From contig DATIWM010000050.1 of the NCBI GenBank assembly GCA_035519355.1, positions 1-34,538 of the forward strand: a DNA stretch of 34,538 nucleotides, given 5' to 3'. The number at the start of each line of letters is the position of its first letter. Position 1 is the stretch's first letter. Position numbers and translations under genes: made by a program. The notes under the pieces were generated by a model. That model was given only the letters and a program-made list of their open reading frames with translations. It was not told the DNA's origin and did no database searches. Origin of the DNA: Thermoanaerobaculia bacterium. GTDB taxonomy: Bacteria > Acidobacteriota > Thermoanaerobaculia > UBA5066. This document shows positions 1 to 25,480 of this stretch, in pieces.

Positions 1-49
1 GAATGACGGGAATGTCCTCGAGTATCTAGGCGGAACTGAGCACGACACG

Positions 50-643
50 ATGACCCCCACGGATTCCCGCGTGACGATCCACATGGCGGCGAGCCTCGAC
101 GGCTTCATCGCTCGCAAGGACGGGCGCGTCGACTGGCTCGAAACCTCCGACGAATTCGTCGACGGCGACACCATGGACCCGGAATTCGTCGAGGCGTTCC
201 TCAGGACGATCGACTGCTACGTCATGGGATCGCGAACCTATGAGACCGCGCTTCGTTTTGAAGCCCAGGGGTTCGGGTGGTCGTACGGCGACAAACCCAC
301 CTTCGTCCTCACGAGTCGCGAACTACACCGGACCCGGGATACCGTCACATTCCACTCAGGCGATCTCGCGCAGTTCGTGAAGGGGCGCCTACGGCCCACG
401 TTCCGTGCCATCTGGTTTGTCGGAGGTGGTGCCGTCTCCGGCGAATGCCTTCGGCTCGGGCTGGCGGACGAAGTGCGTTATTCGATCCTGCCGATCCTGA
501 TTGGCGACGGGATCCCGTTCTTCGAGAAGCTCGAGAGAGACATCGCCCTCCATCTGGCGGAGGTCAAAGCCTACAAGAGCGGCATGGTGGAGCTTCGGTA
601 CGAGGTTCAAGGTCATCGCGGCGAGTCACGGAACGCCATCTGA
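50..643 (+). CDS. dihydrofolate reductase-like (RibD C-terminal domain) family protein
   Basis: 197-aa ORF with ATG at 50. VTIHMAASLDGFIARKDGRVDWL, YVMGSRTYE and WFVGGGAVSGECLRLGLADE resemble the RibD_C/DHFR-like reductase fold. GC3 is high. Confidence 0.8.
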   Translation: MTPTDSRVTIHMAASLDGFIARKDGRVDWLETSDEFVDGDTMDPEFVEAFLRTIDCYVMGSRTYETALRFEAQGFGWSYGDKPTFVLTSRELHRTRDTVTFHSGDLAQFVKGRLRPTFRAIWFVGGGAVSGECLRLGLADEVRYSILPILIGDGIPFFEKLERDIALHLAEVKAYKSGMVELRYEVQGHRGESRNAI

Positions 644-670
644 CAACAGCCAGCAGCGGACGGCGCTCCG

Positions 671-697
671 CTCGCCGCGGAACGCGATTTCGTCGGG
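671..697 (+). repeat. recurrent intergenic motif, degenerate copy E
   Basis: ctcgccgcGGAACGCGATTTCGTCggg, preceded by GCAGCGGA (653-660) and hairpin AGCGGA/TCCGCT (655-672). It lies between convergent genes, so no plus-strand gene follows closely. Confidence 0.5.
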
Positions 698-714
698 CGC
701 CGAATGTTTCCCCT

Positions 715-1119
715 TTATCCGGGACCCGGCTTGCTCTTGCCCTTGAGATTGAGCGTCACGGCGGCGCGGATGAGATCCCTCAAGGCCGTTTCATCGACCT
801 TGTCGCCTTCGTGGATGTCGATGGCGCGCCTGACATTCCCGTCGAGACTGGAGTTGAACAGTCCTGACGGGTCCTTCAACGAAGCTCCCCTGGAAAACGT
901 CATCTTCACGACGTTCTTGTACACTTCTCCCGTGCAGACGAGGCCACCGTGGGACCAGACGGGAGTCCCCATCCACTTCCACTCTTCGACGATCTCAGGG
1001 TCTGCCGCGAGGATGATTTGACGCACTGTCGCGAGCGTCTTTCCGCGCCAGTCTTCAAGTGCCTTGATCTTCTCGTCGATCAATGCAGAAGCAGATTTCA
1101 CCGCGACGGGCCGTTTCAT
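715..1119 (-). CDS. DUF1801 (YdhG-like) domain protein
   Basis: ORF 715..1131. The ATG at 1119 is preceded by GAGGTGGAG, so I prefer it over the GTG at 1131. DWRGKTLATVRQIILAADPEIVEEWKWMGTPVWSHGG is typical of the DUF1801/YdhG family. Confidence 0.75.
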   Translation of the reverse strand: MKRPVAVKSASALIDEKIKALEDWRGKTLATVRQIILAADPEIVEEWKWMGTPVWSHGGLVCTGEVYKNVVKMTFSRGASLKDPSGLFNSSLDGNVRRAIDIHEGDKVDETALRDLIRAAVTLNLKGKSKPGPG

Positions 1120-1168
1120 CTGCAGCTCCACCTCTTGCAGCCATTTTAACTGAAGGCGACGCCTGCCG

Positions 1169-1870
1169 ATGCCGCTCCATATCGGAATCGTGGCCTGTAG
1201 CGCCGAGGGAGCCGCCCTCTGCTATCGCACCATCTGCGCCGAAGGTCCAGCTCTCATGGGCGCGCACCGGCATCCCGAGGTGTCGATGCACACGCACTCG
1301 CTTGGCGATTACATGGACTTCATCCGTCGAGACGACTGGTCGGGCGTCGCCCGCCTCATGCTGTCCTCGGCGGAGAAGCTTAAGAGAGTCGGCGCCGATT
1401 TCCTCATCTGTCCCGACAACACCATTCACCGGTCCTTCCCCCTGGTCGTGGAGCGTTCGCCCCTCCCCTGGTTACACATTGTGGAAGAGGTCGCGGCCGA
1501 GGCAAGGCGTAGAGGGTTCAGGCGGCTGGCGATCACGGGCACGACGTATACCATGGAGGGCCCGATCTATCCCGACGTCCTCACGCGAAACGGTATCGGC
1601 TTCCGGATACCCTCCACGGCGGACCGCCGAGCCCTGAACGACATCATCTTCGACGAACTGGTCAACGGCATCTTCAAGCCCGAATCCGTCGAGGTCTTCC
1701 GCACCGTCATCGGAGCAATGAGAGCCGAGGGCTGTGACGCCGTGGTTTTGGGATGCACAGAGATTCCTCTACTCATCACGCCGGAAGACTCACCGTTGCC
1801 CGTGCTGGACTCCACTCGGTTGCTTGCTCGCGCGGCGTTACAGAGGGCCATCCACCGACCGCCTGAATGA
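1169..1870 (+). CDS. aspartate/glutamate racemase family protein
   Basis: 233 aa. IGIVACSAEGAALCY near the N-terminus and VVLGCTEIPLL near the C-terminus are the two Cys-containing motifs of Asp/Glu/hydantoin racemases. Confidence 0.8.
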   Translation: MPLHIGIVACSAEGAALCYRTICAEGPALMGAHRHPEVSMHTHSLGDYMDFIRRDDWSGVARLMLSSAEKLKRVGADFLICPDNTIHRSFPLVVERSPLPWLHIVEEVAAEARRRGFRRLAITGTTYTMEGPIYPDVLTRNGIGFRIPSTADRRALNDIIFDELVNGIFKPESVEVFRTVIGAMRAEGCDAVVLGCTEIPLLITPEDSPLPVLDSTRLLARAALQRAIHRPPE

Positions 1871-1889
1871 AGAGTGCCAGGAGAGTGGC

Positions 1890-2300
1890 ATGGTATTCGC
1901 GATCAAAGCCAAGGTTGGCGATTCGTCGGCGGAGATCTTCGCATTCCGCGCGCAGAAGACGATGTATGGGGGCAAGCACATAGCCAAAGGCGACGAGATC
2001 TTCATCTTCGCGAGCGAAAACGAAGGCGGACCGGGTCTCATCGCGAGCGGCGTCGTCACCTCCGCCAGAGCGATCCCAAGGGAAATCGGGATCGCCCGGC
2101 AGACGCCGCGCGTCAGTATCACCATCAGACGCGCCGCGCTCGCAAGGCGACGCCTGGGACGGAGCGAGCTCAAGCGGTATTGCGACTGGAACGACGGTCG
2201 ACCCGGGACCGAGCTGAACTTCAAATTCTACCGTCAGGCAACAAACAAGATCATTGGCATCTCGGATGAGGCCGCGGCGTTCCTCCGCCGATTCTTCTAG
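1890..2300 (+). CDS. hypothetical protein (136 aa)
   Basis: Internal ATG at 1890 of ORF 1734..2300; the upstream part overlaps the racemase gene. GC3 is high. I recognise no family (MVFAIKAKVGDSSAEIFAF...). Confidence 0.55.
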   Translation: MVFAIKAKVGDSSAEIFAFRAQKTMYGGKHIAKGDEIFIFASENEGGPGLIASGVVTSARAIPREIGIARQTPRVSITIRRAALARRRLGRSELKRYCDWNDGRPGTELNFKFYRQATNKIIGISDEAAAFLRRFF

Positions 2301-2301
2301 G

Positions 2302-2336
2302 GCCGCCGATTTCGACAGGAAGACGCGGTATTGTCT
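2302..2336 (+). repeat. recurrent intergenic motif, copy F (two tandem half-cores)
   Basis: gccgccGATTTCGACagg aaGACGCGGTATTGTCt. It ends 37 nt upstream of ATG 2374. Confidence 0.6.
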
Positions 2337-2373
2337 GAGGATCGCGGCCTGCTCACGGAGACGGCCTCGACCC

Positions 2374-2832
2374 ATGCTGGTACCTGCTGCGCGTCCCGAT
2401 CGGCCGACTCGAACCCACGGCTGGGCGTGGCTGGTCCTCACGGCGTGCCTCGCTCTTCACGTTGCGGACGAGGCCGCGCACGACTTCCTCGCCCTCTACA
2501 ACCCCGTTGCGGTCCGCATCCGAGCGGCCCTGCCCTTCCTCCCCCTGCCTGTCTTCTCGTTCCCGGTCTGGCTCGGGGGCCTCGTCCTGGCGGTCATCGT
2601 CCTGGCTGCCCTCTCTCGCTACGCCTTCACGGGTCGCGCCTGGATTCGGCCCGCCTCGTACGTCTACGCCGTCTTCATGCTCTTCAACGGCCTCACCCAT
2701 ATCGTCGGTTCGCTGTATACCCAGCGCCCCCTGGCGGGTGTCCTCACCGCGCCCCTGCTCGTCCTGGCTTCGGCTTTCCTCGCGTGGAGCGTTCCGCGGG
2801 AGCCCGCGACCCGGGCGGGGCCGGTACCTTGA
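2374..2832 (+). CDS. integral membrane protein, unknown function
   Basis: ATG at 2374 within ORF 2254..2832. About four hydrophobic helices (WAWLVLTACLALHV, VWLGGLVLAVIVLAAL, VYAVFMLFNGLTHIVG, LTAPLLVLASAFLAW). Confidence 0.6.
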   Translation: MLVPAARPDRPTRTHGWAWLVLTACLALHVADEAAHDFLALYNPVAVRIRAALPFLPLPVFSFPVWLGGLVLAVIVLAALSRYAFTGRAWIRPASYVYAVFMLFNGLTHIVGSLYTQRPLAGVLTAPLLVLASAFLAWSVPREPATRAGPVP

Positions 2833-2874
2833 GCACGGTGTCTGGCCCCCCCGCTGCGGCGGTCTCGCTCTGCT

Positions 2875-2898
2875 CGCCGCTGAGCTTGATATTGTCGG
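2875..2898 (+). repeat. recurrent intergenic motif, copy G
   Basis: cgccgcTGAGCTTGATATTGTCgg. It ends 20 nt upstream of ATG 2919. Confidence 0.65.
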
Positions 2899-2918
2899 TG
2901 GCGCTAAGGACTTCGCAG

Positions 2919-3611
2919 ATGCTACTCGGCGCGTCGTACGGCTACCTCGCCCTCCTGCTCCTGGCCGGAATTGCGTTCTGGCCGCGGTATCTCTCCCGAC
3001 TCACCGAGAGTATCGATCCCTACACCCACGCCCATGCGGTGCTCGCCCTCTTGTGGTGTCTCCTCCTGATCTGTCAACCATTCCTCGTCCGCAGGAACCG
3101 CCAACTGCACCGACGCGTCGGCGCACTCTCGTATGTCCTCGCGCCATCCTTTGTCGTGGCCTCGCTTCTCCTCGCCAACGCGCGTTTCAGAGCCATGAGT
3201 GACACCACTTTTCGACAAGAGGCGTCCACCCTGTACCTGCCTCTATCCGCGGCCGTTCTGTTCGGTGTTTCCTATGGCCTCGCAATCTATTACCGCCACG
3301 ACGTGGCCCTGCACGCGCGCTTCATGGTGGCGACGGGTCTTCCCATGATCGATCCCGTGGTTGGCAGGGTGTTGTTCTACTACGGGCCTCCGCTCGCTCA
3401 CCCCCTCTACATTCAGGCGATCACGTTCGGGTTGACCGACCTCATCCTTCTCGGGCTCTTCGCCTACCCTTCTCTCCCTCTTCGCTCGCGGGCGACTTTC
3501 GCTCTCCCGGCCGCAGCGTTCCCCGCGCTACACCTGGCATGGTTCACCGTCGTTCAGAGCAGCGCGTGGGTACCCTTCGCGTCCTGGTTCCGTAACCTGC
3601 CCTTGTCATGA
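2919..3611 (+). CDS. integral membrane protein, unknown function
   Basis: ATG at 2919 within the 426-aa ORF 2331..3611; the first 196 codons overlap the previous gene in another frame. There are multiple TM helices from MLLGASYGYLALLLLAGIAFW onward. Confidence 0.6.
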   Translation: MLLGASYGYLALLLLAGIAFWPRYLSRLTESIDPYTHAHAVLALLWCLLLICQPFLVRRNRQLHRRVGALSYVLAPSFVVASLLLANARFRAMSDTTFRQEASTLYLPLSAAVLFGVSYGLAIYYRHDVALHARFMVATGLPMIDPVVGRVLFYYGPPLAHPLYIQAITFGLTDLILLGLFAYPSLPLRSRATFALPAAAFPALHLAWFTVVQSSAWVPFASWFRNLPLS

Positions 3612-3650
3612 GCGGGCTGGGCCTGACCCGCCGTTGCAGCGGGCCCGCTT

Positions 3651-3679
3651 CGCCCGCGGCGGAACGCGGCATCGTCAGG
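3651..3679 (+). repeat. recurrent intergenic motif, copy A
   Basis: cgcccgcggcGGAACGCGGCATCGTCAgg, preceded by GCAGCGGGCCCGC (3636-3648). It ends 8 nt upstream of ATG 3688. Confidence 0.7.
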
Positions 3680-3687
3680 TGTCCAAG

Positions 3688-4233
3688 ATGCCCACGTTCG
3701 TAGCTCTCCTGCGCGGCGTCAACGTCGGCAAGGCCAACCGCGTGCCCATGGCAGAGTTTCGTGCCCTTCTCTCGAGCCTGGGCTACGGGGGCGTCGTCAC
3801 TCTCCTTAACAGCGGTAACGCGGTCTTCCGCGCCGCACGGGGCACTCCGGCGACGCATTCAGCTGCCATCGCGGTAGCCCTCTCACGCGGGATGAATGTC
3901 GAAGTGCTCGTGGTCGTGAAGTCGGCCAAAGAACTCACCGCAATCGTCGCCGAGAGCCCCATCCGGGTTCAAGCAGCCGATCACTCCCGCCTCCTGGTTG
4001 CATTCACCCAGGAGAGCCGGGCCCTGGCGAGCCTGCACACCATCCAGCCGCTCGTCGCGCCGCCAGAGCAGTTTGCGATCGGCAAGAACGCTGCCTACTT
4101 CTTCTGCGCGCGAGGCATGCTGCAGAGTCAGGCGGGCGCGGCGCTCCTCGGAATGGCCGGTCGCGCTGCCACCACGAGAAACTGGGCTACCACACTCAAG
4201 CTGCAGGCGCTTGCGAACGGGGGCGACACCTGA
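3688..4233 (+). CDS. DUF1697 domain protein
   Basis: The N-terminus MPTFVALLRGVNVGKANRVPMAEFRALLSSLGY...LNSGNAVF is the characteristic DUF1697 opening. ATG at 3688. Confidence 0.8.
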   Translation: MPTFVALLRGVNVGKANRVPMAEFRALLSSLGYGGVVTLLNSGNAVFRAARGTPATHSAAIAVALSRGMNVEVLVVVKSAKELTAIVAESPIRVQAADHSRLLVAFTQESRALASLHTIQPLVAPPEQFAIGKNAAYFFCARGMLQSQAGAALLGMAGRAATTRNWATTLKLQALANGGDT

Positions 4234-4282
4234 CCCGTCGCTCGAGCGTCACGCCGTTAAACCGGAAGGATCGGAGAACGGA

Positions 4283-4549
4283 ATGAAGATCGAAATCGTC
4301 TATTGCCCGACGTGACAGAACAACAAGGCCAAGGTCACGAGTCTCGTGGCCATCATCAAGGAACGCCTCGGCATTGAGGCGGTGACCAGGCCGGGCAAGA
4401 CCGGTCAGTTCGACGTGATCGCGGATGGCAGGAGAATCGCCGAACGCGGCGGAAACTGGTTCACTCGAGGCTTCGGCGCCGGCTATCCCGATCTGGATGG
4501 CGTGGTCGAGCAGCTCGAAAAGCACCGGTCGAGCGACGCCGCCCGATAG
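4283..4549 (+). CDS. SelW/Rdx-family thioredoxin-like selenoprotein candidate (in-frame TGA at 4313-4315 read as Sec)
   Basis: ATG 4283 is preceded by GGAGA. MKIEIVYCPT is followed by TGA, and the reading frame continues in the same frame into ORF 4346..4549 (QNNKAKVTSLVAIIKERLGIEAVTRPGKTGQFDVIADGRRIAERGG...). This gives a CxxU motif at the position of the Rdx CxxC/CxxU redox centre. A hairpin follows the TGA. Confidence 0.7.
4327..4351 (+). promoter_or_regulatory. candidate bacterial SECIS hairpin
   Basis: GGCCA(4327-4331) pairs with TGGCC(4347-4351). An alternative register is G4333-C4351 through G4339-C4345 with an AGUCU loop. The stem begins 11-17 nt after the UGA, the usual SECIS position in bacteria. 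Confidence 0.5.
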
Positions 4550-4648
4550 AGGGCACGCCTCGAGACGTCCCGATCGGCCAGGGACTCATCGCTCTCGCTG
4601 GACGACCTCCGGGGGGAGCAGCCAGGCCCTCGTCGAAGCGGACTCACT

Positions 4649-4678
4649 CCGCCTGCCGCTGATCTTGGTATCGTCAGG
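4649..4678 (+). repeat. recurrent intergenic motif, copy B
   Basis: ccgcctgccgctGATCTTGGTATCGTCAgg, preceded by GCAGCCAGGCC (4618-4628). It ends 36 nt upstream of ATG 4715. Confidence 0.7.
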
Positions 4679-4714
4679 CGGCGGGAACAGACGCACCGGC
4701 AAATCGGAGGCCCC

Positions 4715-5131
4715 ATGATTCGTCGTCTTCTGCCTGGAATCCTGGTCGCCCTCGCGCTCGCAGCCTGCTCGAGCACTCCAACCGCGGGTCCCACGCTGGC
4801 CGGCCGATGGGCGCCCCTCAGCGCCGAACTGGGCGGCCAACCGTTCCCCATCGCGAGCCTCGGGGACGCACCCCTCCGGTTGACGAGGGACGCCTACGAG
4901 TTCGGCGGTGACAAGGGGACGTACGCTGTTCTCTCCACGAGTCCGCCATCCAGGATGGACATCCACGGACGAGAAGGGCCGAACGCCGGACGCACGATCC
5001 AGGCAATCTACGAACTCGCCGGCGGCCAACTCACCGTCTGCTATCAGCTGGGGCCGGGAGAACGCCCGACTGAATTCAAGACCACGAAGGGCTCGCAGCT
5101 TCTGCTGATCCGCTACCTGCGCGTTCCATGA
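4715..5131 (+). CDS. TIGR03067-type lipoprotein
   Basis: GGAGG lies upstream of ATG 4715. The signal peptide has lipobox LAAC. LAGRWAPLSAELGGQPFP...IYELAGGQLTVCY...RPTEFKT matches the TIGR03067 pattern known from Planctomycetes and Acidobacteria. Confidence 0.75.
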   Translation: MIRRLLPGILVALALAACSSTPTAGPTLAGRWAPLSAELGGQPFPIASLGDAPLRLTRDAYEFGGDKGTYAVLSTSPPSRMDIHGREGPNAGRTIQAIYELAGGQLTVCYQLGPGERPTEFKTTKGSQLLLIRYLRVP

Positions 5132-5191
5132 ACGCTTCGCCTACTCGCCGCAGCGGGCCGGCGCCTCGCTTTTCGACCCGGCAGACTCGAT

Positions 5192-5220
5192 CCGCCCGCC
5201 GCTGAACGCGATATCGTCAT
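5192..5220 (+). repeat. recurrent intergenic motif, copy C
   Basis: ccgcccgccgctGAACGCGATATCGTCAt, preceded by GCAGCGGGCCGGC (5150-5162) and CGCTTTTCGAC. It ends 49 nt upstream of ATG 5270. Confidence 0.75.
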
Positions 5221-5269
5221 ACCCGCACTGCGGTCCAACCTTGAGGCCATGACCACTGTCTGACGGCGC

Positions 5270-6235
5270 ATGACCCGAAGAACGCTCGCCGACCTCCCCG
5301 GCATCCCCGCCCTGGCCGTTCTCGCGTTCCTCACGACCGTTGCACGTGCCGGTCCGGCGGATTCCACACTGCAGGTGGTTTCCGGTACGACGGATGCGGG
5401 TGATGCCACGGACCAATGGCTGGCCATGCTCCGGAAGAGGCTCTCACCGGCCGAGTACGACTCGGTGGCCCGGCTCCGCAAACTCCGAACTGTTGGGGAA
5501 CAGGCCTGGGCCGCCCTCATCCAGTCGCGGATCGCCTCCTGGGAGCGCGAAATCCCCGCCCTCGCAGCCCCTTTTCACCCGGTCTCTCCCCCCGGCCGGG
5601 TACTCATCGTCCTCGGCAACCGCGACGGGGGCGATGCCTTCACCCACGATCCCACTACCATCGGCTTCGATCTGGCCGAGCTCGCGGCCAACTATGGGGT
5701 CGCCGATCAACCGCAGAATCCCGCGTTGATCGACCGCCTGTTCCGGCATGAGTTCACGCACCTTCTCCAGAAGGCCTGGTTGCCGACGCACCCGTGGTTG
5801 GCGGACTCCCCGCTTCGCGCGGCCCTCCTCGACATATGGCTCGAGGGGCTGGGAAACTACTACTCGCTGTCGGAACGCTGGCGCGGCGAAGACGGCCGGC
5901 GCCCTGAGGCGGCGCAGCGTGCGCTGGCCAGCCTCGAGCCCCGATTCGTGACCCGACTCGCCGCGCTCGCCTGCGCCGACCCCGACAAGGCGGGCGCGTT
6001 ACTGGCCGGCAGCTCGTCGGGCCCTCTTGATCGCAAGTGGGGAGCCATGCCGGCCGCTCTATGGCTCGAGGAGGACCAGGAAGCCTCCCCCATGGCCCTC
6101 CGAAACTTCATCGTGGCGGGTCCCGCCGGGGTCTGGGCGCTGGCTGATCGCCATCTCCCCGAACCGCTCCGCCTCGTGCTCAAGGAGGCTCAGGTCGCGG
6201 ACTCCCTCTGTACAAGCAGGCACCGGTCGCCGTGA
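5270..6235 (+). CDS. secreted HExxH-motif protein (putative zinc metallopeptidase-like)
   Basis: 321 aa with an N-terminal signal-like segment LPGIPALAVLAFLTTVARA and an HEFTH motif (LFRHEFTHLLQKAW). The family is not recognised with certainty. Confidence 0.55.
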   Translation: MTRRTLADLPGIPALAVLAFLTTVARAGPADSTLQVVSGTTDAGDATDQWLAMLRKRLSPAEYDSVARLRKLRTVGEQAWAALIQSRIASWEREIPALAAPFHPVSPPGRVLIVLGNRDGGDAFTHDPTTIGFDLAELAANYGVADQPQNPALIDRLFRHEFTHLLQKAWLPTHPWLADSPLRAALLDIWLEGLGNYYSLSERWRGEDGRRPEAAQRALASLEPRFVTRLAALACADPDKAGALLAGSSSGPLDRKWGAMPAALWLEEDQEASPMALRNFIVAGPAGVWALADRHLPEPLRLVLKEAQVADSLCTSRHRSP

Positions 6236-6286
6236 TTCCATGCGCCACCTGACGACCGCACGAAGGGTCAGCACCCCTCGCTTCCA

Positions 6287-6313
6287 CCCGCCTCCGAACG
6301 CAGCGGCGACAAG
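6287..6313 (+). repeat. recurrent intergenic motif, degenerate copy H
   Basis: cccgcctccGAACGCAGCGGCGACAag. The left half is exact and the right half diverges. It ends 13 nt upstream of ATG 6327. Confidence 0.4.
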
Positions 6314-6326
6314 AGGAGAACGGATC

Positions 6327-6815
6327 ATGAGACCAGCCCGGCGCACGAGCCCCGTAGCTGCCGATGCCGAGGATCAACTCAAGTCCTTCATCGGCAAATT
6401 CGACGCGAAGGATCAACAGCTCATTCGCGCCGTCCGAAGGGCGCTGCGCAAACGGTTTCCGACCGCCAACGAGCTCGTATGGGACAACTACAACTTCTTC
6501 GTGATCGGATACTCCCCGACAGAACGGTCGTCGGATTCGATCGTTTCGATCGCCGCTCGGGCGAACGGCGTCGGTCTCTGCTTCATCCATGGCGCGGCCC
6601 TTCCCGATCCGAAGAAGGTCCTTCTCGGCTCCGGCAACCAGACCCGCTTCATTCGCCTCGAGTCAGCAGCCGTCCTGGCCCGTCCGGAGGTTGAAGCGCT
6701 CTTCGCCGCCGCGATCGCACGGGCGAAGACACCGCTGTCAGCCGCCGGCCGCCGTAAGGTCATCATCCGGTCCGTGTCGGCAAAGCAGCGCCCGCGACGA
6801 AAGCCGGCGAGTTAG
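6327..6815 (+). CDS. DUF1801-like / hypothetical protein
   Basis: ATG 6327 is preceded by AGGAGA. 162 aa. DQQLIRAVRRALRKRFPTANELVWDNYNFFVIGYSP resembles YdhG-like proteins. The upstream part of ORF 6027..6815 overlaps the previous gene. Confidence 0.6.
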   Translation: MRPARRTSPVAADAEDQLKSFIGKFDAKDQQLIRAVRRALRKRFPTANELVWDNYNFFVIGYSPTERSSDSIVSIAARANGVGLCFIHGAALPDPKKVLLGSGNQTRFIRLESAAVLARPEVEALFAAAIARAKTPLSAAGRRKVIIRSVSAKQRPRRKPAS

Positions 6816-6858
6816 ACCCGGGCGTACCGATGGCCGCGGCGCTGGCGGTCCATGTCGT

Positions 6859-6885
6859 CGCGCCGCCGAACGCGGTATCGTCATG
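6859..6885 (+). repeat. recurrent intergenic motif, copy D
   Basis: cgcgccgccGAACGCGGTATCGTCAtg. It ends 50 nt upstream of ATG 6936. Confidence 0.75.
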
Positions 6886-6935
6886 CGGGCACGTCGATCG
6901 AAAACCCGTCGTTCATCTCTCGAGGAGGTCTCGCG

Positions 6936-7328
6936 ATGAAAGCCAAACCTCGGACCATCGACGAGTATCTCGATTTTCAGAGCCCCGAGAAGCGGGCTGC
7001 GCTCGAGAAGCTTCGAAGGGCCATCAAGTCTGCGGCGCCGACGGCCGAAGAGTGCATCAGCTATCAGATTCCGGCCTTTCGTCTCGGCGGGAGGATGTTG
7101 GTCGCCTTTGGCGCGGCTGCAAACCACTGCGCCTTCTACCCCGGAGCCTTCCCCGTGAAAGCCCACAGGAAGGCGCTCAGGGCCTACGACACCAGCAAGG
7201 GCACGATCCGTTTCGATCCGGAGAGTCCTTTGCCGGCCTCCCTCGTCCGCAAGCTGGTCAAGACGAGGATCCTGGAGCACGCCGCCCGACGATCGGGTGA
7301 ATCGTCCGGCCCCAGGCGCCGCCGCTGA
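6936..7328 (+). CDS. DUF1801 (YdhG-like) domain protein
   Basis: ATG 6936 is preceded by GAGGAGG. IDEYLDFQSPEKRAALEKLRRAIKSAAPTAEECISYQIPAFRLGGRMLVAFGAAANHCAFYP is a typical YdhG/DUF1801 sequence. Confidence 0.8.
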   Translation: MKAKPRTIDEYLDFQSPEKRAALEKLRRAIKSAAPTAEECISYQIPAFRLGGRMLVAFGAAANHCAFYPGAFPVKAHRKALRAYDTSKGTIRFDPESPLPASLVRKLVKTRILEHAARRSGESSGPRRRR

Positions 7329-7364
7329 GCCAGGGCGCCGTTCGACGCCTCGAGAGCACACACC

Positions 7365-7835
7365 TTGAATCCGGAGTCGCAACGGCTCGCCGAATGGTCG
7401 AAGGCGGTCCGGGGTTCATCACTCAAACGCCTCTCCCTCGTCCGCCCGGGCCTCGAAAACTGGCGGCTCACCGCCGGTTCCATGAGCTTCGCGGACGTCG
7501 CCTTTCACCTGATCGAAGCCGATCTCTGGCTATTCCGCAAGCTGGCCGACCCCGGCTTGTCCCCCATGGTCGGCCGCGCAGGCACCACGAACATCTCGGC
7601 TCGGGATCAGTTCACGGCTCTGTGCGACAGATTGGAGGCCCTGGGTCAGGAGCGTGCGGCCCTTCTCGGGTCTCTCTCCCCCGCTCAACTCGACGCCACC
7701 GTTCTCGATCAGCGCTTCGGCGGCGTCGTCACCTGCTGGTGGGTCGTCGTCCGCGGCAACCTCGATCACGAGGTGCATCACAGGGGCCAGGTCGTCGCGT
7801 GGCTTCGGGCGGCCGGCATCACGAGCGGTCCATGA
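7365..7835 (+). CDS. DinB family protein
   Basis: 156 aa with a TTG start at 7365. FHLIEADLWLF and the C-terminal DHEVHHRGQVVAWLRAAG form the DinB four-helix-bundle His signature. Confidence 0.75.
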   Translation: MNPESQRLAEWSKAVRGSSLKRLSLVRPGLENWRLTAGSMSFADVAFHLIEADLWLFRKLADPGLSPMVGRAGTTNISARDQFTALCDRLEALGQERAALLGSLSPAQLDATVLDQRFGGVVTCWWVVVRGNLDHEVHHRGQVVAWLRAAGITSGP

Positions 7836-8001
7836 AGGGCGATTGACCACGCACTCCAGCGGACCATGTCGCGCATGTCACCGCCTTGCGCCAGCGGATG
7901 GGGTGGTGACCGCCCGGGAACCCGGCCCCGGCACACCGCGAACCCGGTCGACCTCCCCGTCGGGCGCGGTAGAGTCGGGCTGACAAGGCGACGGAGGTCC
8001 C

Positions 8002-8388
8002 ATGAAAGTGAAGCTGAGCAGCGTCCTCGTCGACGATCAGGAGAAGGCCCTCCGCTTCTATACGGAGGCTCTGGGCTTCGTCAAGGCGAAGGACGTTCCG
8101 ATGGGCGTGGCGCGATGGCTGACCGTCGTCTCGCCCGAGGCGCCGGACGAAGTCGAGCTGCTCCTCGAACCCAACGGCAACCCGGCCGCCCGGACCTTCC
8201 AGCGCGCGCTCTTCGAGCAGGGAATTCCGTTGACGGCCTTTGCCGTCGAGAACATCCAGGAGGAGTACGAGAGGCTGAGGAGACGGGGTGTCGTGTTTCG
8301 TTCGGAGCCACGACGCATGGGACCGGCGACCGTCGTCGTCTTCGACGATACGTGCGGAAACCTGATCCAGCTCTATCAGGTCGGATGA
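8002..8388 (+). CDS. VOC (glyoxalase/bleomycin resistance) family protein
   Basis: 128 aa. VLVDDQEKALRFYTEALGF...VVFDDTCGNLIQLYQ is typical of VOC-fold proteins. Confidence 0.8.
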   Translation: MKVKLSSVLVDDQEKALRFYTEALGFVKAKDVPMGVARWLTVVSPEAPDEVELLLEPNGNPAARTFQRALFEQGIPLTAFAVENIQEEYERLRRRGVVFRSEPRRMGPATVVVFDDTCGNLIQLYQVG

Positions 8389-8425
8389 TCACCGGCCGGC
8401 CGGAAGGCAGCCAGGAGACAGAGCC

Positions 8426-8785
8426 ATGAGCCAGGCGACAACCAGCATCCGTGTTTTCGCGGTCTATCTCGTGATCCTCGGCGCGACCCTCGTCGCGGCG
8501 CCCGACCTCGTCCTGGCGCCGTTCGGCATCCCCCACTCGCCGGAGGGCTGGATACGGGTCATCGGCGTTCTCGCCGCCGTCCTCGGCCTCTACTACTTCG
8601 TCGCCGCGCGGTTCGAGCTGGTGCCGTTCTACCGCGCCACGGTCTTCGGCAGGATCTTCGTCTTCCTCTCGTTCGGAGCCCTGGCGCTGTTCGGCTTCGC
8701 GCCCACGTCTCTCGCGCTGTTCGGGACCGTCGACCTCGCGGGAGCGGTCTGGACGGCGGCCGGCCTCCGCGCTGCGGCGAGGTAG
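8426..8785 (+). CDS. small integral membrane protein
   Basis: 119 aa with four hydrophobic segments and high GC3. No family recognised. Confidence 0.6.
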   Translation: MSQATTSIRVFAVYLVILGATLVAAPDLVLAPFGIPHSPEGWIRVIGVLAAVLGLYYFVAARFELVPFYRATVFGRIFVFLSFGALALFGFAPTSLALFGTVDLAGAVWTAAGLRAAAR

Positions 8786-8799
8786 CCGAGGAGGCCCCG

Positions 8800-9855
8800 A
8801 TGACCGCAACGGTCCCCGCCTGTGCCGCGCCGTCCGCCAGGGCGCCGCTCGTTCCCCACGCGATCACCCGCCGCGAGCCGGGACCGCACGACGTCCAGAT
8901 CGAGATCCTCTACTGCGGCGTCTGCCATTCGGACATCCACCAGGTCCGCGACGAGTGGGCTCCCGGGATCTTCCCGATGGTGCCCGGCCACGAGATCGTC
9001 GGACGCGTGACGCAGGTCGGCGAGAAGGTCACGAGATTCACCGCCGGCGACCTCGCCGGCGTCGGCTGCTTCGTCGACTCGTGCCTCGCCTGCGACCCCT
9101 GCCGGCGGGACCTCGAGCAGTTCTGCCTGAAGGGCGCCGCATTCACATACAACGGGACCGAGATGGACCGGAGGACGCCGACGTACGGCGGCTACTCCAC
9201 GCGGATTGTCGTCACGGAGCGGTTCACGCTGAAGGTCCCCGCGGGACTGGACCTCCCGGCGGCGGCGCCGCTGCTCTGCGCCGGGATCACGACCTACTCG
9301 CCGCTCCGGCGGTGGAAATGCCGGAGAGGCGACCGCGTCGGCGTCGTGGGCCTCGGCGGGCTTGGCCACATGGCGGTGAAACTGGCCGCCTCGATGGGGG
9401 CCGAGGTGACGATGCTCTCCACGTCGCGTTCGAAGGAAGCCGACGCGCGGCGGCTCGGCGCCCACGCCTTCGAGCTGACGACGGAGCCCAGGGCGCTGAA
9501 GAAGCTGTCGGGGCGGTTCGACCTTCTGATCGACACGGTTTCGGTCGACCACGACCTGAACGCCTACCTCGGCCTGCTCCGTCCGGAAGGGGCGATGGCG
9601 ATCGTCGGCATCCCGCCGACGCCGGTCCCCCTCACCGCCATGTCGCTGGTCTTCGGGAACAAGAAGCTGGCGGGCTCCATGATCGGCGGCATCGCCGAGA
9701 CGCAGGAGATGCTCGACTACTGCGCGGCGAAGAAGATCGTCGCGGACGTGGAGATGATCCCGATCGGGATGATCAACGAGGCGTACGAGCGGATGATCCG
9801 GAGCGACGTCCGCTACCGCTTCGTGATCGACATCGCGAGCCTGAGGGAATCCTGA
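8800..9855 (+). CDS. NAD(P)-dependent zinc alcohol dehydrogenase (cinnamyl-alcohol/YahK-like)
   Basis: 351 aa with GAGGAGG upstream. It has CGVCHSDIH, GHEIVGRV, the structural-Zn Cys cluster CLACDPCRRDLEQFC, and the Rossmann motif VGVVGLGGLGHMAVK. Confidence 0.9.
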   Translation: MTATVPACAAPSARAPLVPHAITRREPGPHDVQIEILYCGVCHSDIHQVRDEWAPGIFPMVPGHEIVGRVTQVGEKVTRFTAGDLAGVGCFVDSCLACDPCRRDLEQFCLKGAAFTYNGTEMDRRTPTYGGYSTRIVVTERFTLKVPAGLDLPAAAPLLCAGITTYSPLRRWKCRRGDRVGVVGLGGLGHMAVKLAASMGAEVTMLSTSRSKEADARRLGAHAFELTTEPRALKKLSGRFDLLIDTVSVDHDLNAYLGLLRPEGAMAIVGIPPTPVPLTAMSLVFGNKKLAGSMIGGIAETQEMLDYCAAKKIVADVEMIPIGMINEAYERMIRSDVRYRFVIDIASLRES

Positions 9856-9891
9856 GGAGCCCCGGCGCCCGGCCCCGCTAGACTTCAGAAG

Positions 9892-10116
9892 ATGAAAGAG
9901 CCCGGGAACATCCGTGACGCCGTCCCCGCCCCCTCCGTCGGGCGCGTCCACGAGGACGGCTCCGTGACATTCCGCGGCGTCCGGTATCGATCCCTGAAGG
10001 AGGTCCCGCCCGGGTGCCGGATCCTGCGGGCCGACCTCGCCGCGGAGACGCAGTGGCGCCGCCTCTATCGGGCCGTCGACCCGCGCCGTCGAAAGTCGGG
10101 GGAGAACGGCGGATGA
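9892..10116 (+). CDS. small hypothetical protein (74 aa) coupled to purU
   Basis: It fills the ADH-purU gap exactly. Its TGA (10114-10116) overlaps the purU ATG (10113-10115) as ATGA. GC3 is high. No recognised family. Confidence 0.5.
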
Positions 10117-12891: not shown

Positions 12892-12913
12892 CCGCGCCGG
12901 ACCGATATCATGG
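12892..12913 (+). repeat. recurrent intergenic motif, degenerate copy J
   Basis: ccgcgccgGACCGATATCATgg. It matches the core with a 1-nt gap, and TATCAT is -10-like. It ends 37 nt upstream of ATG 12951. Confidence 0.35.
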
Positions 12914-21407: not shown

Positions 21408-24400
21408 ATGGGAGAGGGCTCGGAGCGGTTCGGACCTCCCTCGCGCGACCTCTTCGTCGCCGGAGGGACACGCGAGTACCTCTCGCCCGGGGCGCGGAAG
21501 GAGAGGCTCCGGAAACGGAGCTTCGCGGCGGCGGCGGCGAAGGGACCGCGCTACGCGGAGCTGAGGTGCGCCTCGGCCTTCTCGTTCCTGAACGGCTCCT
21601 CCCTTCCGGAAGACCTCGTCGAGCGGGCGGCGGCGCTCGGCCTCGCGGCCGTCGCCCTCGTCGACGCGAACGGCCTCTCGGGCGCCCCGCGCTTCTGGAA
21701 GGCCGCCCGGGCGGCGGGGCTCAAGGCGCTCGTCGGGGCGGAGGTCACTCTTTCATTCGAAGCACAGCGGCGCGCAGCGCCGCTGCGGGGTTCTTCTCTT
21801 CTCCCGGGTCCCCTGGGCCTCGTTCCGCCGCCCTTGCCGCCCGGCACACCCCCCGCGCGGCTGACGCTGCTGGCCGAGAGCCGGACCGGTTATCGCAATC
21901 TCTGCCGGCTCCTTTCGGCCGGAGCGCTGGGAAAGCCGAAGGGCGAAGCGTCCGTGACGTGGGAGCAGGTGGCGGCGCACGCCGAAGGGCTCCACGTCCT
22001 GACCGGCGGCGAGGAGAGCCCGGTCCACCGCGCGCTCGCCTCGCGTCTCCCTTCCGCCGCGCGACGGCTCCTCGCGAAGCTCGCCGGACTCTTCCCGGGC
22101 CGTCTCCACGTGGAGCTTCAGCGCCACGGCCTCCGCGAGGAGGAGCACGCGAATCGCGCGCTCGTCGATCTCGCCGAAGCGCTCAGGCTCCCCCTTCTCG
22201 CCACGAACGGCGTCCGTTATGCGAAACCGGAGGGGAAGGAGCTTCACGACGCTCTCTCCTCCCTCCGCTTCCACACGACGCTCGACGGCGCGGGAGCCCG
22301 TCTTCATTCCCATCGCGAGCGGCACCTGAAGGGCGCGGAGGAGATGGCGCGCCTCTTCGCCGACCTCCCCGGGGCGCTCGGACACGCGGCGGATCTCGCC
22401 GGGCGGCTCGACTTCACGCTGGCCGACCTCGGCTACCGCTTCCCCGACTACCCGCTCCCGCCGGGCGAGACCCCCGCGTCGTACCTCCGCCGCGCGACGT
22501 GGGAGGGGGCGCGCGTCCGTTTCCGGCCGCTCACCGGGCGGGCGCAGGCCCAGCTCGAGAAGGAGCTGAACCTCATCGAGAAGCTCGACCTCGCGGGCTA
22601 CTTCCTCATCGTCCGGGACGTCGTGCAGTTCTGCCAGCGGGAGAAGATCCTCGTGCAGGGGCGCGGTTCGGCCGCCAACAGCGCCGTCTGCTACGCCCTC
22701 TCCATCACGGCCGTCGACCCCGTGAAGATGGAGCTCCTCTTCGAGCGCTTCCTCTCGGAAGAGCGGGGCGAGTGGCCCGACATCGACCTCGACCTCCCCT
22801 CGGGCGACCAGCGGGAGAAGGTGATCCAGTACGTCTACGGCCGGTACGGCCCGCACGGCGCCGGGATGACGGCGAACGTCATCACCTACCGCGACCGCTC
22901 GGCCGCGCGCGAGATGGCGAAGGTGCTCGGCTTTTCGGGCGAGCAGGTTGACGTCCTGGCGAAGGTATTGGGAAGTTGGAGCTTCGGCGAATACAGGGAT
23001 GCGAATCGCGATGTTCTCAAGGAACTCGCAGACGCGGGCTTCGATGCCGAGGATCCGCGAGTTGGTCACTTCGCGCGGCTCTTCGCGAGCGTCCAGAACC
23101 TGCCGCGTCACCTCGGACAGCACTCGGGAGGGATCGTCGTGGCGCAGGGACGGCTGGACGAGGTCGTCCCGCTCGAGCCCGCGGCGATGGAGGGGCGCGT
23201 CGTCATCCAGTGGGACAAGGACGACTGCGCCGACCTCGGCATCGTGAAGGTGGACCTCCTCGGCCTCGGGATGCTCAGCGCGATCGAGCGGATGATCCCG
23301 ATGATCCGGACGCACGAGGGGGTCGACGTCGACCTCGCGCACCTCCCGCCCGACGACCCGGCCGTCTACCGGATGCTGAACGAGGCCGACACCGTCGGCG
23401 TCTTCCAGGTCGAGAGCCGCGCGCAGATGGCGTCCCTTCCGCGCAACGCGCCGTTCTGTTTCTACGACCTCGTCATCCAGGTCGCCATCATCCGCCCCGG
23501 CCCGATCGTGGGCGGGATGGTCCATCCCTTCTTCGACCGGCGGCAGGGGCGCGCGCCGGTCACCTATCCGCATCCCTCGCTCGAGCCGATCCTGAAGAGG
23601 ACGCTCGGCATCCCGCTCTTCCAGGAGCAGCTCCTCCGGATCGCCATGGTGGCCGCCGGCTTCACGGGGGGCGAGGCCGAGGAGCTGCGCCGCGCCATGG
23701 GCTTCAAGCGCTCGGCCGAGCGGATGGCCGTCATCGAGAAGCGGCTCCGCGACGGGATGACGGCGCGCGGCATCACGGGCGAGGCGCAGGAGCAGATCGT
23801 GAAGTCGATCACCTCCTTCGCTCTCTACGGCTTTCCCGAGTCGCACGCCGCCAGCTTCGCCCTCATCGCCTACGCGAGCGCGTGGCTGCGGGCGCACCAC
23901 CCGGCCGCCTTCCTCACGGGACTCCTCAACGCCTGGCCGATGGGCTTCTACCACCCCGCCACGCTCGTGAAGGACGCCGAGCGACACGGCGTGACGGTGC
24001 TCCCGATCGACGTCGGCTTCTCGGGATGGGAATGCCGAATAGAGAGGAGGCCGGAGATTTCTTCGAAAGGGGGCCCGGACGGCGGAGTGCCTCGCGACGC
24101 ACGCGCGTGCTGTCTGAGCGAAGCGAGTTCACGCGCGAAGGAGCGAGGTACCCCGCCGGCCGAGGGCTCTCCCCTAGCCGTCCGTCTCGGGCTTCGATTC
24201 CTCAAGGGACTTCGTGAGGAATCCGGAAGAACCCTCGAGCGCGAATCCGCCCGGAGGCCGTTCGCCGACGTGGCCGATCTCGCGCGCCGCGGCGCGCTCC
24301 GGCCGGACGAGCTGGACCGCCTCGCCTGGGCCGGGGCGCTCTCGTCGCTCGGCCTGACCCGCCGCGAGGCGATGTGGCAGGTGGCCGAGATCGGCCGTCG

Positions 24401-24876: not shown

Positions 24877-25224
24877 CTATGGAGCGAAAAACTCCTGAAG
24901 GGTCTCGAGGAGGCGGGAACGAGTCCCCGGAGACAGAGTGCCCAGACGGCGGACGACCCGGCTCTTGTCGATCACCCGGATCTGATCGATCGCGACGAAG
25001 CCGTCGCGGTTGCGGAAGCGGCATGGAACTCGAAACGGATAGGCTCTCCCGCTCGTCGTCATCGGTGCCACGAGGACCGTCCGGAGAACGCCAACCAACT
25101 CGTCCGGGCTGACGACGGCGCAGGGACGCGTCCTGGCGATCTCGCTCCCTTCGACCGGATCGAGGCGGACGAGAACGACGTCGAAGCGCCTCAGATCCGA
25201 ACGGGCCTTACCAGCGCCATTCAT
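24877..25224 (-). CDS. type II toxin-antitoxin system PemK/MazF-family toxin
   Basis: 115 aa from ATG 25224. RRFDVVLVRLDPVEGSEIARTRPCAVVSPDE...VLVAPMTT...FRVPC...GFVAIDQIRVIDKSRV is a typical MazF/PemK sequence. Confidence 0.85.
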   Translation of the reverse strand: MNGAGKARSDLRRFDVVLVRLDPVEGSEIARTRPCAVVSPDELVGVLRTVLVAPMTTSGRAYPFRVPCRFRNRDGFVAIDQIRVIDKSRVVRRLGTLSPGTRSRLLETLQEFFAP

Positions 25225-25462
25225 CCCGGTCGAAACGGGTCCGCCCCGTGTCGTCCGAAAGAAGCGGCGTGTCGTCGCCCCTCTCCGCCATCTCCCTCGC
25301 CGCCTCGGCCCATCCCTCCCGGGTTTTCCGCCCCGGGCGGAGCAGCAGCCCGCCGGAGACGATCTGGAGTTCCACCACCTCGCGGAATCCCGTCTCTTCG
25401 AGGATACTTTTCGAAAGCCGAATTCCACGGGAATTGCCGATCCGGACGATCTGCGCCTTCAT
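25208..25462 (-). CDS. AbrB/MazE/SpoVT-family antitoxin
   Basis: 84 aa from ATG 25462 with GAGGAGG upstream. MKAQIVRIGNSRGIRLSKSILEE is the SpoVT-AbrB swapped-hairpin motif. It overlaps the toxin start by 17 nt. Confidence 0.8.
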   Translation of the reverse strand: MKAQIVRIGNSRGIRLSKSILEETGFREVVELQIVSGGLLLRPGRKTREGWAEAAREMAERGDDTPLLSDDTGRTRFDRDEWRW

Positions 25463-25480
25463 CGACCCGGGCCTCCTCAC

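Follow-up and report, generated by a model that had tools for sequence, protein, structure and literature searches.

Gene Content of the Block

The window (the whole stretch of 34,538 nucleotides that we analyzed) opens with a block of 8 kb whose composition is foreign (GC3 of 0.79 vs 0.90), the array ranging from 0.71 to 0.82 and the flanks, with core-like genes on either side, from 0.88 to 0.93. The first gene of this block, for a RibD_C/DHFR-like reductase (50..643, plus strand; Pfam PF01872; GC3 0.79), of which copies with 86–91% nucleotide identity are present in other arrays and genomes (L108–L110), is followed by a three-gene unit on mixed strands with no internal attC site (715..2300; GC3 0.74–0.78), in which Pfam and the reading frames indicate a DUF1801 protein (715–1119, minus), an Asp/Glu racemase (1169–1870, plus) and a 136-aa hypothetical protein (1890–2300, plus). 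The remaining genes are all on the plus strand, and encode an HXXEE-like membrane protein (2374..2832; PF13787, 24.4 bits, slightly below the cutoff); a 230-aa membrane protein (2919..3611; an ORF with GC3 of 0.76 and a weak DUF2306 match); a DUF1697 protein (3688..4233; PF08002, 113 bits), whose gene is 77% identical in nucleotides to a cassette of L007; and a SelW-like (Rdx) protein (4283..4549) with an in-frame TGA at 4313–4315 (CPT-U motif), both the TGA and the reading frame being conserved in L016. Further to the right are the ORFs of a 138-aa putative lipoprotein (4715..5131; GC3 0.75) and of a 321-aa HExxH-type protein (5270..6235; GC3 0.80), neither of which produced a match in the Pfam search; two DUF1801 genes (6327–6815 and 6936–7328; PF08818); and, both assigned by Pfam, a DinB-family gene (7482–7835) and a gene of the glyoxalase/bleomycin-resistance family (8002–8388), which gene is the last one. 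The array ends at approximately 8389–8425, without a terminal attC site, and the GC3 passes from 0.82 to 0.92 at 8426.

A Recurrent Motif in the Spacers

The spacers between these genes share a motif that is, very probably, the conserved right-hand end (L'-spacer-R') of integron attC sites, or "59-base elements," in an Acidobacteriota-type array. The motif belongs to a well-known kind of element, the attC sites that part mobile gene cassettes, here in a chromosomal array. The six strong copies that the first-pass annotation had listed were all found in their places, on the plus strand and within spacers, and the recurrence of the 25-nt motif in the plus-strand spacers of positions 1–8000 is well beyond chance: we counted 13 matches to GAACGCGRTATCGTC with at most three mismatches against 3.6 expected, a number reached in none of 100 shuffles, together with nine matches to the core GRYATYGTC against 1.8 expected. 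The GCAGCGG(G/A)C block reported upstream of the motif proved to be real. REP/BIME-type dispersal in both orientations was not observed, the good copies being one-stranded and located in the 8-kb block out of the 34.5 kb examined.

The motif is just the 3' third of a larger palindromic site, of approximately 59–140 nt in the window, that follows the layout R''(RYYYAAC)–5 nt–L''...L'–8 nt–R'(GTTRRRY) and forms an imperfect hairpin whose L''/L' stem is GC-rich and itself imperfect, with a pair of bases bulging out of the R''-L'' arm. The R'' box starts 6–12 nt past the upstream stop codon, and the R' box ends 8–50 nt before the next start codon. The sites number 9–10 across 8 kb, all on the plus strand; and since each spacer holds one attC site, positions 1–8400 are therefore an array of approximately 11 gene cassettes. 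Cassettes of the window were found again in other arrays, with the similarity beginning or stopping at an attC site.

To score the individual sites we used a covariance model (R1) trained on the sites of relatives alone, with no sequence from the window, which model detected six sites in the window with 57 to 19 bits, all of them intergenic and on the plus strand. The stretch at 671–697, considered degenerate in the first-pass annotation, is instead a good copy within the site at 638..698 (40.3 bits, E 2e-10; PWM score 31.3), whose R'' box ATCTGAC overlaps the RibD_C stop codon and whose right-hand end reads L' GCCGCGGAAC, gcgatttc and R' GTCGGGC. The site at 2840..2900 (48.3 bits, E 4e-13) extends from R'' GTCTGGC to L' CGCCGCTGAGC, ttgatatt and R' GTCGGTG. 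The best preserved of all, at 3621..3680 (57 bits, E 6e-16), reads GCCTGAC-ccgcc-GTTGCAGCGGGC...GCCCGCGGCGGAAC-gcggcatc-GTCAGGT, and was the only one to give a full R-box plus L-box hairpin on both strands (approximately −19 kcal/mol), the other window sites folding no better than shuffles in that GC-rich context. At 4621..4679 (38.7 bits) R'' GCCAGGC is followed by L' GCCGCTGATC, ttggtatc and R' GTCAGGC, and this site plus the SelW-like gene are 81% identical to L016:3085-3504. The site at 5138..5222 has a long variable loop between R'' CGCCTAC, tcgcc and L'' GCAGCGGGC on the left (an arm recognized by eye) and L' GCCCGCCGCTGAAC, gcgatatc and R' GTCATAC on the right, with the model scoring the core at 5163–5222 (34.8 bits). 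Between the two DUF1801 genes of the right-hand part, at 6822..6886 (18.9 bits, E 2e-3; PWM score 33.6), R'' GCGTAC precedes L' GCGCCGCCGAAC, gcggtatc and R' GTCATGC.

The other sites appear decayed. A remnant at 2310..2339, read from the sequence as an R''-like TTTCGAC (2310–2316), gacgcggtatt and R' GTCTGAG (2333–2339), has its L boxes deleted and matches the motif with three mismatches; the plus-strand search with the covariance model gave no match there. The reported degenerate copy at 6287–6313 is plausible as a decayed one, belonging by eye to a site at 6247..6314 (R'' ACCTGAC ... CCGCCTCCGAAC, gcagcggc, GACAAGA) for which the model gave no significant match. Two further copies on the plus strand add to those previously listed: a possible remnant at 7320..7346, recognized by eye as CGCCGCTGAGC, cagggcgcc and GTTCGAC and overlapping the DUF1801 stop codon; and a long site at 7841..7980, likewise by eye, with R'' GATTGAC, cacgcact and CCAGCGGAC ... 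GCGCGGTAGA before R' GTCGGGC, whose counterpart in the L005 strain still reads GGTATCGTCGGGC and has a PWM match at the homologous place. The copy that had been proposed at 12892–12913 and the TATCGT before the ATG at 13878 are both placed among the core genes of high GC3, and the best match to the model in their vicinity reached 9.4 bits (E ~2); with no support from the model, both are therefore probably chance matches. Separately, a GTTAAAC at 4256–4262, 3' of the DUF1697 gene, could be a lone R' remnant.

Structure, Distribution, and Association with an Integrase

In an alignment of 32 sites from relatives the consensus was GCCTAAC-nnCGC-GTTGCAGCGGAC...CGCCGCTGAAC-GCGATATC-GTTAGGC, with unpaired spacers of 5 and 8 nt and 89% of the cells paired, as opposed to 26–37% when the partners were slid; the sites of the relatives measure 57–88 nt. 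The L helix was 94% paired and its bulges (columns 16 and 23) were restricted to the 5' arm, while one L-box pair switched between T-A and C-G in 11 of the 32 sites. The window sites, when fitted to that structure, formed 11–15 of the 17 pairs.

When 185,579 species genomes were scanned for the exact pattern, 22 loci emerged where, by our own estimate, we would have expected about two; nearly all of them are in Acidobacteriota MAGs. The copies of the relatives form same-strand arrays, mostly with the canonical end TATCGTTAGGC (GTTAGGC core): L011 has 15 copies spaced at 350–640 nt, and L006, L008, L009, L021, and L023 have 4–9 sites each. In the window as well as in the relatives the sites keep one orientation, with one or few ORFs between them. 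L024 has a bona fide gene for an integron integrase, intI (TIGR02249, 459 bits for a cutoff of 265), with the array following immediately 3' of it, and by eye the attI-side GTTGGGC matches the R'' GCCCAAC of the first site. Matches to the covariance model also adjoin IntI relatives in approximately 20 metagenome loci. The exact 25-mer occurred in none of 80 loci of IntI relatives (59–79% identity), and the integrase link for the exact family therefore consists of L024 plus a partial resemblance in L030, L031, and L034.

The junctions between cassettes carry a further signature. Among the relatives the R'' box of a site complements the R' tail of the preceding site, perfectly so in 23 of 45 junctions and in all 14 of L011; R'' is matched better by the tail of the previous site than by that of its own site in 20 cases, the reverse holding in 6, and the observed mean was reached by none of 5000 permutations. 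This complementarity is the footprint of cassette recombination at G|TT. By analogy with established integron biology, the bottom strand of attC would fold into a bulged hairpin; the tyrosine recombinase IntI would then bind that hairpin and cut the R box between the G and the TT of R', so that cassettes might be excised as circles or inserted at attI. In the window itself good complementarity was seen at only about two of six junctions, which weakness fits an erosion of the sites.

State of the Array

The R' boxes of the relatives carry GTT in 44 of 57 instances, in the consensus GCCTAAC...GTTAGGC. As against this near-universal GTT, the window lineage has GTC in five of the six sites scored by the model (eight of nine by eye, counting the window and L005), and its R'' boxes carry GAC or TAC, most sites having GAC/GTC in place of AAC/GTT. 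The bases of R' and R'' covary (T-A 33, T-G 5, C-A 3, C-G 7; Fisher p 9e-4), so that the GTC variant would be compensated by GAC in the partner box and not the result of random decay. That the conserved attC triplet has shifted in this Acidobacteriota lineage to a compensated GAC (R'')/GTC (R') box recombined by a cognate integrase seems to us doubtful; if it were true, natural integron integrases would differ in the triplet specificity of their cleavage site, and cassette pools could be partitioned between lineages.

We lean toward considering the array a CALIN, a cluster of attC sites that lacks an integrase, here sedentary and with eroded sites, which call, with 1.4 kb of the left flank known, rests on an incomplete flank. 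No similarity to IntI was found across 26 kb on the right and 1.4 kb on the left, at which side the contig ends; and tblastn with two IntI proteins against the window, L005, and L001 returned nothing. Recombination of such an array would probably be rare or absent and at most occur in trans, the cassette genes apparently remaining under purifying selection. In a comparison of two strains with 99% identity, changes affected 2.0% of the attC positions vs 1.06% of those in cassette genes, and thus the sites give no sign of constraint, within the small counts involved (8 changes in all, of which a single site accounts for 6).

It is less likely, though deserving of some weight, that what we see is the distal portion of an active, complete integron whose intI and attI lie just beyond the assembled sequence, the GAC/GTC boxes being functional substrates. 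The compensation of those boxes would suit such an arrangement, as would the increasing decay of the sites from left to right, which gradient is expected with an integrase on the left; the repeated breaking of assemblies at the left-flank gene; and the divergence of three assemblies immediately upstream of RibD_C, at which place the L001 strain has a non-attC sequence of lower GC, ending in CAATCG|TTAGGCG, that looks like an attI junction. IntI1, moreover, tolerates a third-position change in one partner site, but with that enzyme T-to-C at the triplet costs 10–100 times more than T-to-A and the mutation of both partners is strongly deleterious (PMC2811028). The left-flank gene, for its part, is core-like (GC3 0.88), and its L112 homologue is an ordinary chromosomal gene in a context without attC; the overlapping contigs contain no fragment of intI; and both the weak junction signature of this lineage and the unconstrained sites speak against an active system.

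Other Readings of the Motif

The first-pass annotation had favored a shared promoter, with TATCGT as the −10 element and an operator or alternative-sigma determinant that would define a regulon of small genes. Some integron cassettes do carry promoters of their own, so that a secondary promoter role is conceivable; the TATCGT obeys the TAnnnT rule; and the copies stand on the same strand as the start codons that follow at 8–50 nt. As the explanation of the motif, however, a promoter is highly improbable: a scan of positions 1–8500 for sigma-70-like promoters, a class marked by −35 and −10 hexamers spaced at 16–18 nt, found none against 0.9 expected, and at 3680/3688 the 8 nt from the end of the motif to the ATG provide no space for a leader and a ribosome-binding site. 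The pairing and the R'/L' boxes of attC account for the conserved bases, whereas neither the adjacency of IntI nor the covariation at the cassette junctions would be expected of a promoter; and the downstream genes, functionally unrelated and each occurring singly in other arrays, are a typical cassette cargo and no regulon.

The other proposal of that annotation, a cassette-boundary module that had spread with the small genes, was essentially right as to the kind of element, the module being nevertheless a recombination site and not a terminator plus promoter or a REP-like unit. That the motif has nothing to do with integrons and is a REP/BIME- or MITE-like dispersed intergenic repeat or a group of intrinsic terminators is most unlikely, since its GC-rich hairpins shortly 3' of stop codons and the T-run after one copy (5146–5172) are set against good copies on one strand restricted to the foreign 8-kb block, a T-run in only one of nine sites (the supposed terminator at 5146–5163 being a single case inside the variable loop of the site at 5138–5222), terminator-like matches with no enrichment (4 vs 4.8 expected), ends that are integron core sites covarying across cassettes, and an integron integrase adjoining the array in L024.

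Comparison with Known Systems

With the attC sites of mobile integrons, such as the 60-nt site of aadA7, the family described here shares the layout R''(RYYYAAC)–5 nt–L''...L'–spacer–R'(GTTRRRY), the length of approximately 60 nt, the position of the bulged bases in the R''-L'' arm and the G|TT crossover footprint. The sequence of the L boxes is unrelated, and the right-hand unpaired spacer, of 5–6 nt in aadA7, has 8 nt here and varies little, reading GCGATATC or TTGATATC. Unlike in mobile integrons, intI runs in the same direction as the cassettes, and not divergently, in L024 and approximately 11 other loci. The VCR superintegron of Vibrio cholerae is likewise a chromosomal array of one homogeneous attC family between many small same-strand genes, differing in sequence, in length (approximately 120 nt), in host phylum and in that its arrays adjoin an active IntIA.

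CALINs are a defined and common class, in which two or more attC sites follow one another at distances under 4 kb and intI is absent, whether intact or as a pseudogene, over some 10 kb around them (Cury et al., 2016; PMC4889954). The window array likewise has at least two sites at less than 4 kb and a cargo other than resistance genes, with no intI or pseudogene found nearby in a 10-kb check that covers the right side and 1.4 kb of the left. For Acidobacteria phylum-specific covariance models of attC exist (Ghaly et al., 2021; PMC8352920), and these sites of sedentary chromosomal integrons are among the closest in kind, on the basis of phylum and structure and not of consensus. Most window copies are eroded and of the GAC/GTC type, in which they differ; the two share the phylum distribution, the structural conservation within the taxon and the arrays of small cassettes whose function is mostly unknown.

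Structure of the repeated spacer sequence

Within the window, 13 matches to GAACGCGRTATCGTC with up to three mismatches were found against 3.6 expected, along with nine occurrences of the core GRYATYGTC against 1.8 expected. The six strong copies of the first-pass annotation were borne out, all of them lying on the plus strand in the spacers that separate small plus-strand genes; the copy at 671–697 (plus strand) also exists, but is a good copy and not, as had been stated, a degenerate one.

The motif lies within a longer imperfect palindrome, of which it forms the right-hand third. In the window sites, the first 7-mer of that palindrome (..TGAC or ..TAC) begins 6–12 nt past the upstream stop codon and is followed, 5–8 nt later, by the block GCAGCGG(G/A)C—this block, likewise reported at first pass, is present and forms the left arm—then by a variable loop, by the right arm CGCCGCTGAAC, which is complementary to that block, by a conserved 8-nt spacer, GCGrTATC, and by a closing GTCRRRY located 8–50 nt ahead of the next ATG. 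The order is that of the integron attC site, R''(RYYYAAC)-L''...L'-R'(GTTRRRY). The full sites of the relatives, 60 nt long, read GCCTAAC-aacgc-GCTGCAGCGGAC...CGCCGCTGAGC-ttgatatc-GTTAGGC; and in an alignment of 32 such sites, which contained no window sequence, the attC-type structure was 89% paired versus 26–37% with slid partners, both bulges were confined to the R''-L'' arm, and the L-box pair 14–53 switched between T-A and C-G in 11 sites.

When this alignment was turned into a covariance model, the model recovered six window sites, each of them on the plus strand and in a spacer: 3621–3680 (57 bits), 2840–2900 (48 bits), 638–698 (40 bits), 4621–4679 (39 bits), 5163–5222 (35 bits), and 6822–6886 (19 bits). 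Only 3621–3680 formed the full hairpin in single-sequence ssDNA folding, the z-scores of the others being uninformative in this GC-rich context, and a scan of the window at the Rfam gathering thresholds matched no family to the sites. Two further elements that had been assigned to the motif, the copy at 12892–12913 and the TATCGT at ~13864, upstream of the ATG at 13878, lie where the base composition differs and lack support from the model, and were dropped. An isolated model match at 32567–32621 (minus strand; 19 bits, E ~1e-3; GCCGAAC...GTTCGGC), far from the array and situated where two long minus-strand ORFs meet, may be due to chance or be a lone palindrome.

Occurrence in relatives and association with integrases

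Scanning one genome of each species for exact pattern matches, we obtained 22 loci carrying GCSGCNGAACGCGRTATCGTYA, against a chance expectation that we ourselves estimate at ~2. Nearly all were MAGs of the Acidobacteriota (Thermoanaerobaculia, Vicinamibacterales, Holophagae, Terriglobia, and Bryobacterales), and in these loci the motif formed same-strand arrays, mostly closing with TATCGTTAGGC, the canonical integron core site GTTRRRY. One locus, L011, contained 15 copies spaced 350–640 nt apart, and five others (L006, L008, L009, L021, and L023) contained 4–9 each. In L024, a 2.98-Mb Acidobacteriota contig, a protein scored 459 bits on the NCBIfam model TIGR02249 'integron integrase' (cutoff 265); the motif array starts ~225 nt downstream of this intI gene in the same orientation, and the attI-side GTTGGGC is, by eye, complementary to the R'' of the first attC, GCCCAAC. 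At ~3560–4790 (minus strand) of the same contig an IS3-family insertion sequence splits an integrase-linked attC into two halves.

From metagenomes we also examined 80 loci with IntI relatives of 59–79% identity, in which a weight matrix of the 25-mer found no match. A generic geometry scan together with the covariance model located attCs adjoining intI in ~20 of these 80 loci; those sites had the R boxes in common and other inner sequences, with L030, L031, and L034 sharing a GCAGCGGAC...CGCCGCTGA core. Since the exact 25-mer was missing from these loci and the inner sequences differed, the attC sequence is lineage-specific, which specificity fits the published taxon-specific attC models, Acidobacteria included (PMC8352920).

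The junctions between cassettes provided a further line of evidence. IntI crosses over between the G and the TT of R', so that a cassette holds the TTRRRY of the upstream site together with its own R'', and the two must pair. Perfect complementarity of R''(n) to the tail of R'(n-1) was observed in 14 of the 14 L011 junctions, among them those with the rare pairs GTTAGAA/TTCTAAC and GTTAGGT/ACCTAAC, and in 23 of 45 junctions overall in the relatives; there, the previous tail was the better fit to R''(n) in 20 cases and the site's own R' in six, and the observed complementarity exceeded all 5000 permutations. No promoter, terminator, or REP element would make this pattern, which is mostly lost in the window array.

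That the motif copies are attC sites of an integron cassette array of the Acidobacteriota, an element of a known kind, is thus very probable. The first-pass annotation, whose observation of the motif itself is confirmed, had preferred a shared promoter defining a small regulon: that proposal is not sustained and now appears highly improbable, because the scan detected no sigma-70-like promoter, at 3680/3688 there is no space for a leader, and the conservation is wholly accounted for by the attC structure. Its secondary reading, a cassette-boundary module, came close to the outcome. A REP or terminator element, in turn, is scarcely to be credited when the copies occupy one strand only and are limited to the foreign block, a T-run follows only one copy, and terminator-like matches are not enriched.

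Cargo genes and probable erosion of the array

Positions 1–8400 have a GC3 of 0.74–0.82 and a GC content of 61–67%; from 8426 onward those values are ~0.90–0.93 and ~70%. The genes of the first block are small and functionally unrelated, as is typical of cassette cargo: RibD_C, three DUF1801, an Asp/Glu racemase, an HXXEE membrane protein, DUF1697, a SelW-like gene, DinB, and a glyoxalase; downstream are the housekeeping genes ADH, formyltransferase, OTCase, MsrA, and DnaE. Cassettes of the window recur elsewhere with the edges of similarity coinciding with attC: DUF1697 matches a cassette of L007, a DUF1801 matches L010, the SelW-like gene with its attC matches L016, and RibD_C shares 86–91% nucleotide identity with copies in L108, L109, and L110, the L108 array having a longer attC of another type and L109 being a genome of 5.9 Mb. 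The RibD_C/DHFR-like gene (within 43–678) is very widespread, with >7999 proteins at E < 1e-40, many 85–91% identical, and with copies beside different attC types and in the genome L109; the opening 42 nt of the window have no match in any other RibD_C context.

The 88-codon gene at 4283–4549 (plus strand; counterpart L016:3098–3360) has an in-frame TGA at 4313–4315 (MKIEIVYCPT*QNN...), which codon, along with the reading frame on both sides, is kept in that Holophagae MAG at 81% nucleotide identity; a conserved hairpin lies ~14 nt downstream of the TGA, and the readthrough product scored 20.9 bits on Pfam Rdx (SelW/T/H), under the cutoff of 22.6. Judged from its sequence, this gene is probably an integron cassette that encodes a CxxU selenoprotein. 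The inter-attC unit at 715–2300 comprises a DUF1801 (minus strand), the racemase, and a 136-aa ORF with no attC between them, and either has lost internal sites or is a multi-gene cassette.

The window sites scored 19–57 bits versus 60–88 bits in the relatives, and those at 2310–2339, 6247–6314, 7320–7346, and 7841–7980 show visible decay or have internal deletions. In a comparison of two strains of 99% identity, which rests on small counts, substitutions amounted to 2.0% in attC, 1.06% in cassette genes—~8 times the 0.13% of the adjacent core flank, for positions 1–9960 against the other-strain assembly L005—and fell in the cassette genes at codon positions 15:17:42. From this bias and the substitution rates of the sites it follows that the genes are maintained, with the sites under no detectable constraint.

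Overlapping assemblies extended the array to the left by 0.3 kb (L001) and 1.4 kb (L005), the latter containing two more cassettes, with sites closing with GTCAGGC and GTTACGC, and beyond them a gene of core-like GC3 (0.88), 585 nt into which the contig stops; in L112 the homologue of this gene has an ordinary chromosomal setting, in whose vicinity there is no attC. A tblastn search with IntI gave no match in the window, L005, or L001, nor any intI remnant at the position past dnaE that intI occupies in some relatives; the putative attI region of L001, compared with all loci by blastn, showed no meaningful similarity; and tracing homologues, both of RibD_C and of the gene at the L005 end, brought up other arrays or ordinary chromosomal surroundings and no integrase. 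Directly after dnaE (21408–24872) there is a MazE-like/PemK-MazF toxin-antitoxin pair (24877–25480, minus strand); in metagenome loci L059, L054, and L040 intI immediately follows the dnaE homologue. The array is probably sedentary and integrase-less, and on present evidence, with the left flank known for 1.4 kb only, probably corresponds to a CALIN, a cluster of attC sites without an integron integrase (PMC4889954).

The annotation accordingly changes from a putative new regulon to an integron-type cassette cluster in the genome of an uncultured soil Acidobacteriota, with ~14 genes marked as mobile cassette cargo and not as core metabolism, among them the RibD_C/DHFR-like, the glyoxalase/bleomycin-resistance-family, the DinB, the three DUF1801, and the SelW-like selenoprotein genes. 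The array, which is probably a natural case of attC erosion, accounts for the metagenome assembly breaks at this locus.

Comparison with known integrons

In class 1 integrons intI is divergent from the cassettes, whereas in loci such as L024 it has the same direction. The gene lies upstream of the array and codirectional with it in L024, L030, L031, L034, L047, L069, and others; the classical divergent layout occurs in the IntI relatives L076, L068, L089, and L078.

The window sites differ from the canonical attC layout in one respect: their R' begins with GTC instead of GTT. GTC occurred in five of six boxes of the window's lineage versus 13 of 57 in the relatives, and GTC in R' accompanies GAC in the partner R'' (T-A 33, T-G 5, C-A 3, C-G 7; Fisher p 9e-4, with counts that are not phylogenetically independent); L007 has perfect GCCTGAC/GTCAGGC junctions. 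A strict-regex census of other lineages gave no GAC/GTC against 10 canonical sites, though with little power, as the filter misses known GAC/GTC sites of this family. The attC positions with the strongest conservation are AAC/GTT (PMC4889954); IntI1 tolerates a change at the third position when it affects one of the partner sites, T-to-C being among the worse substitutions and the mutation of both partners strongly deleterious (PMC2811028). The possible function of GAC/GTC sites is the sole, and mildly, new aspect of the finding, and the compensated GAC/GTC R box could probe how strict the AAC/GTT requirement is beyond IntI1.
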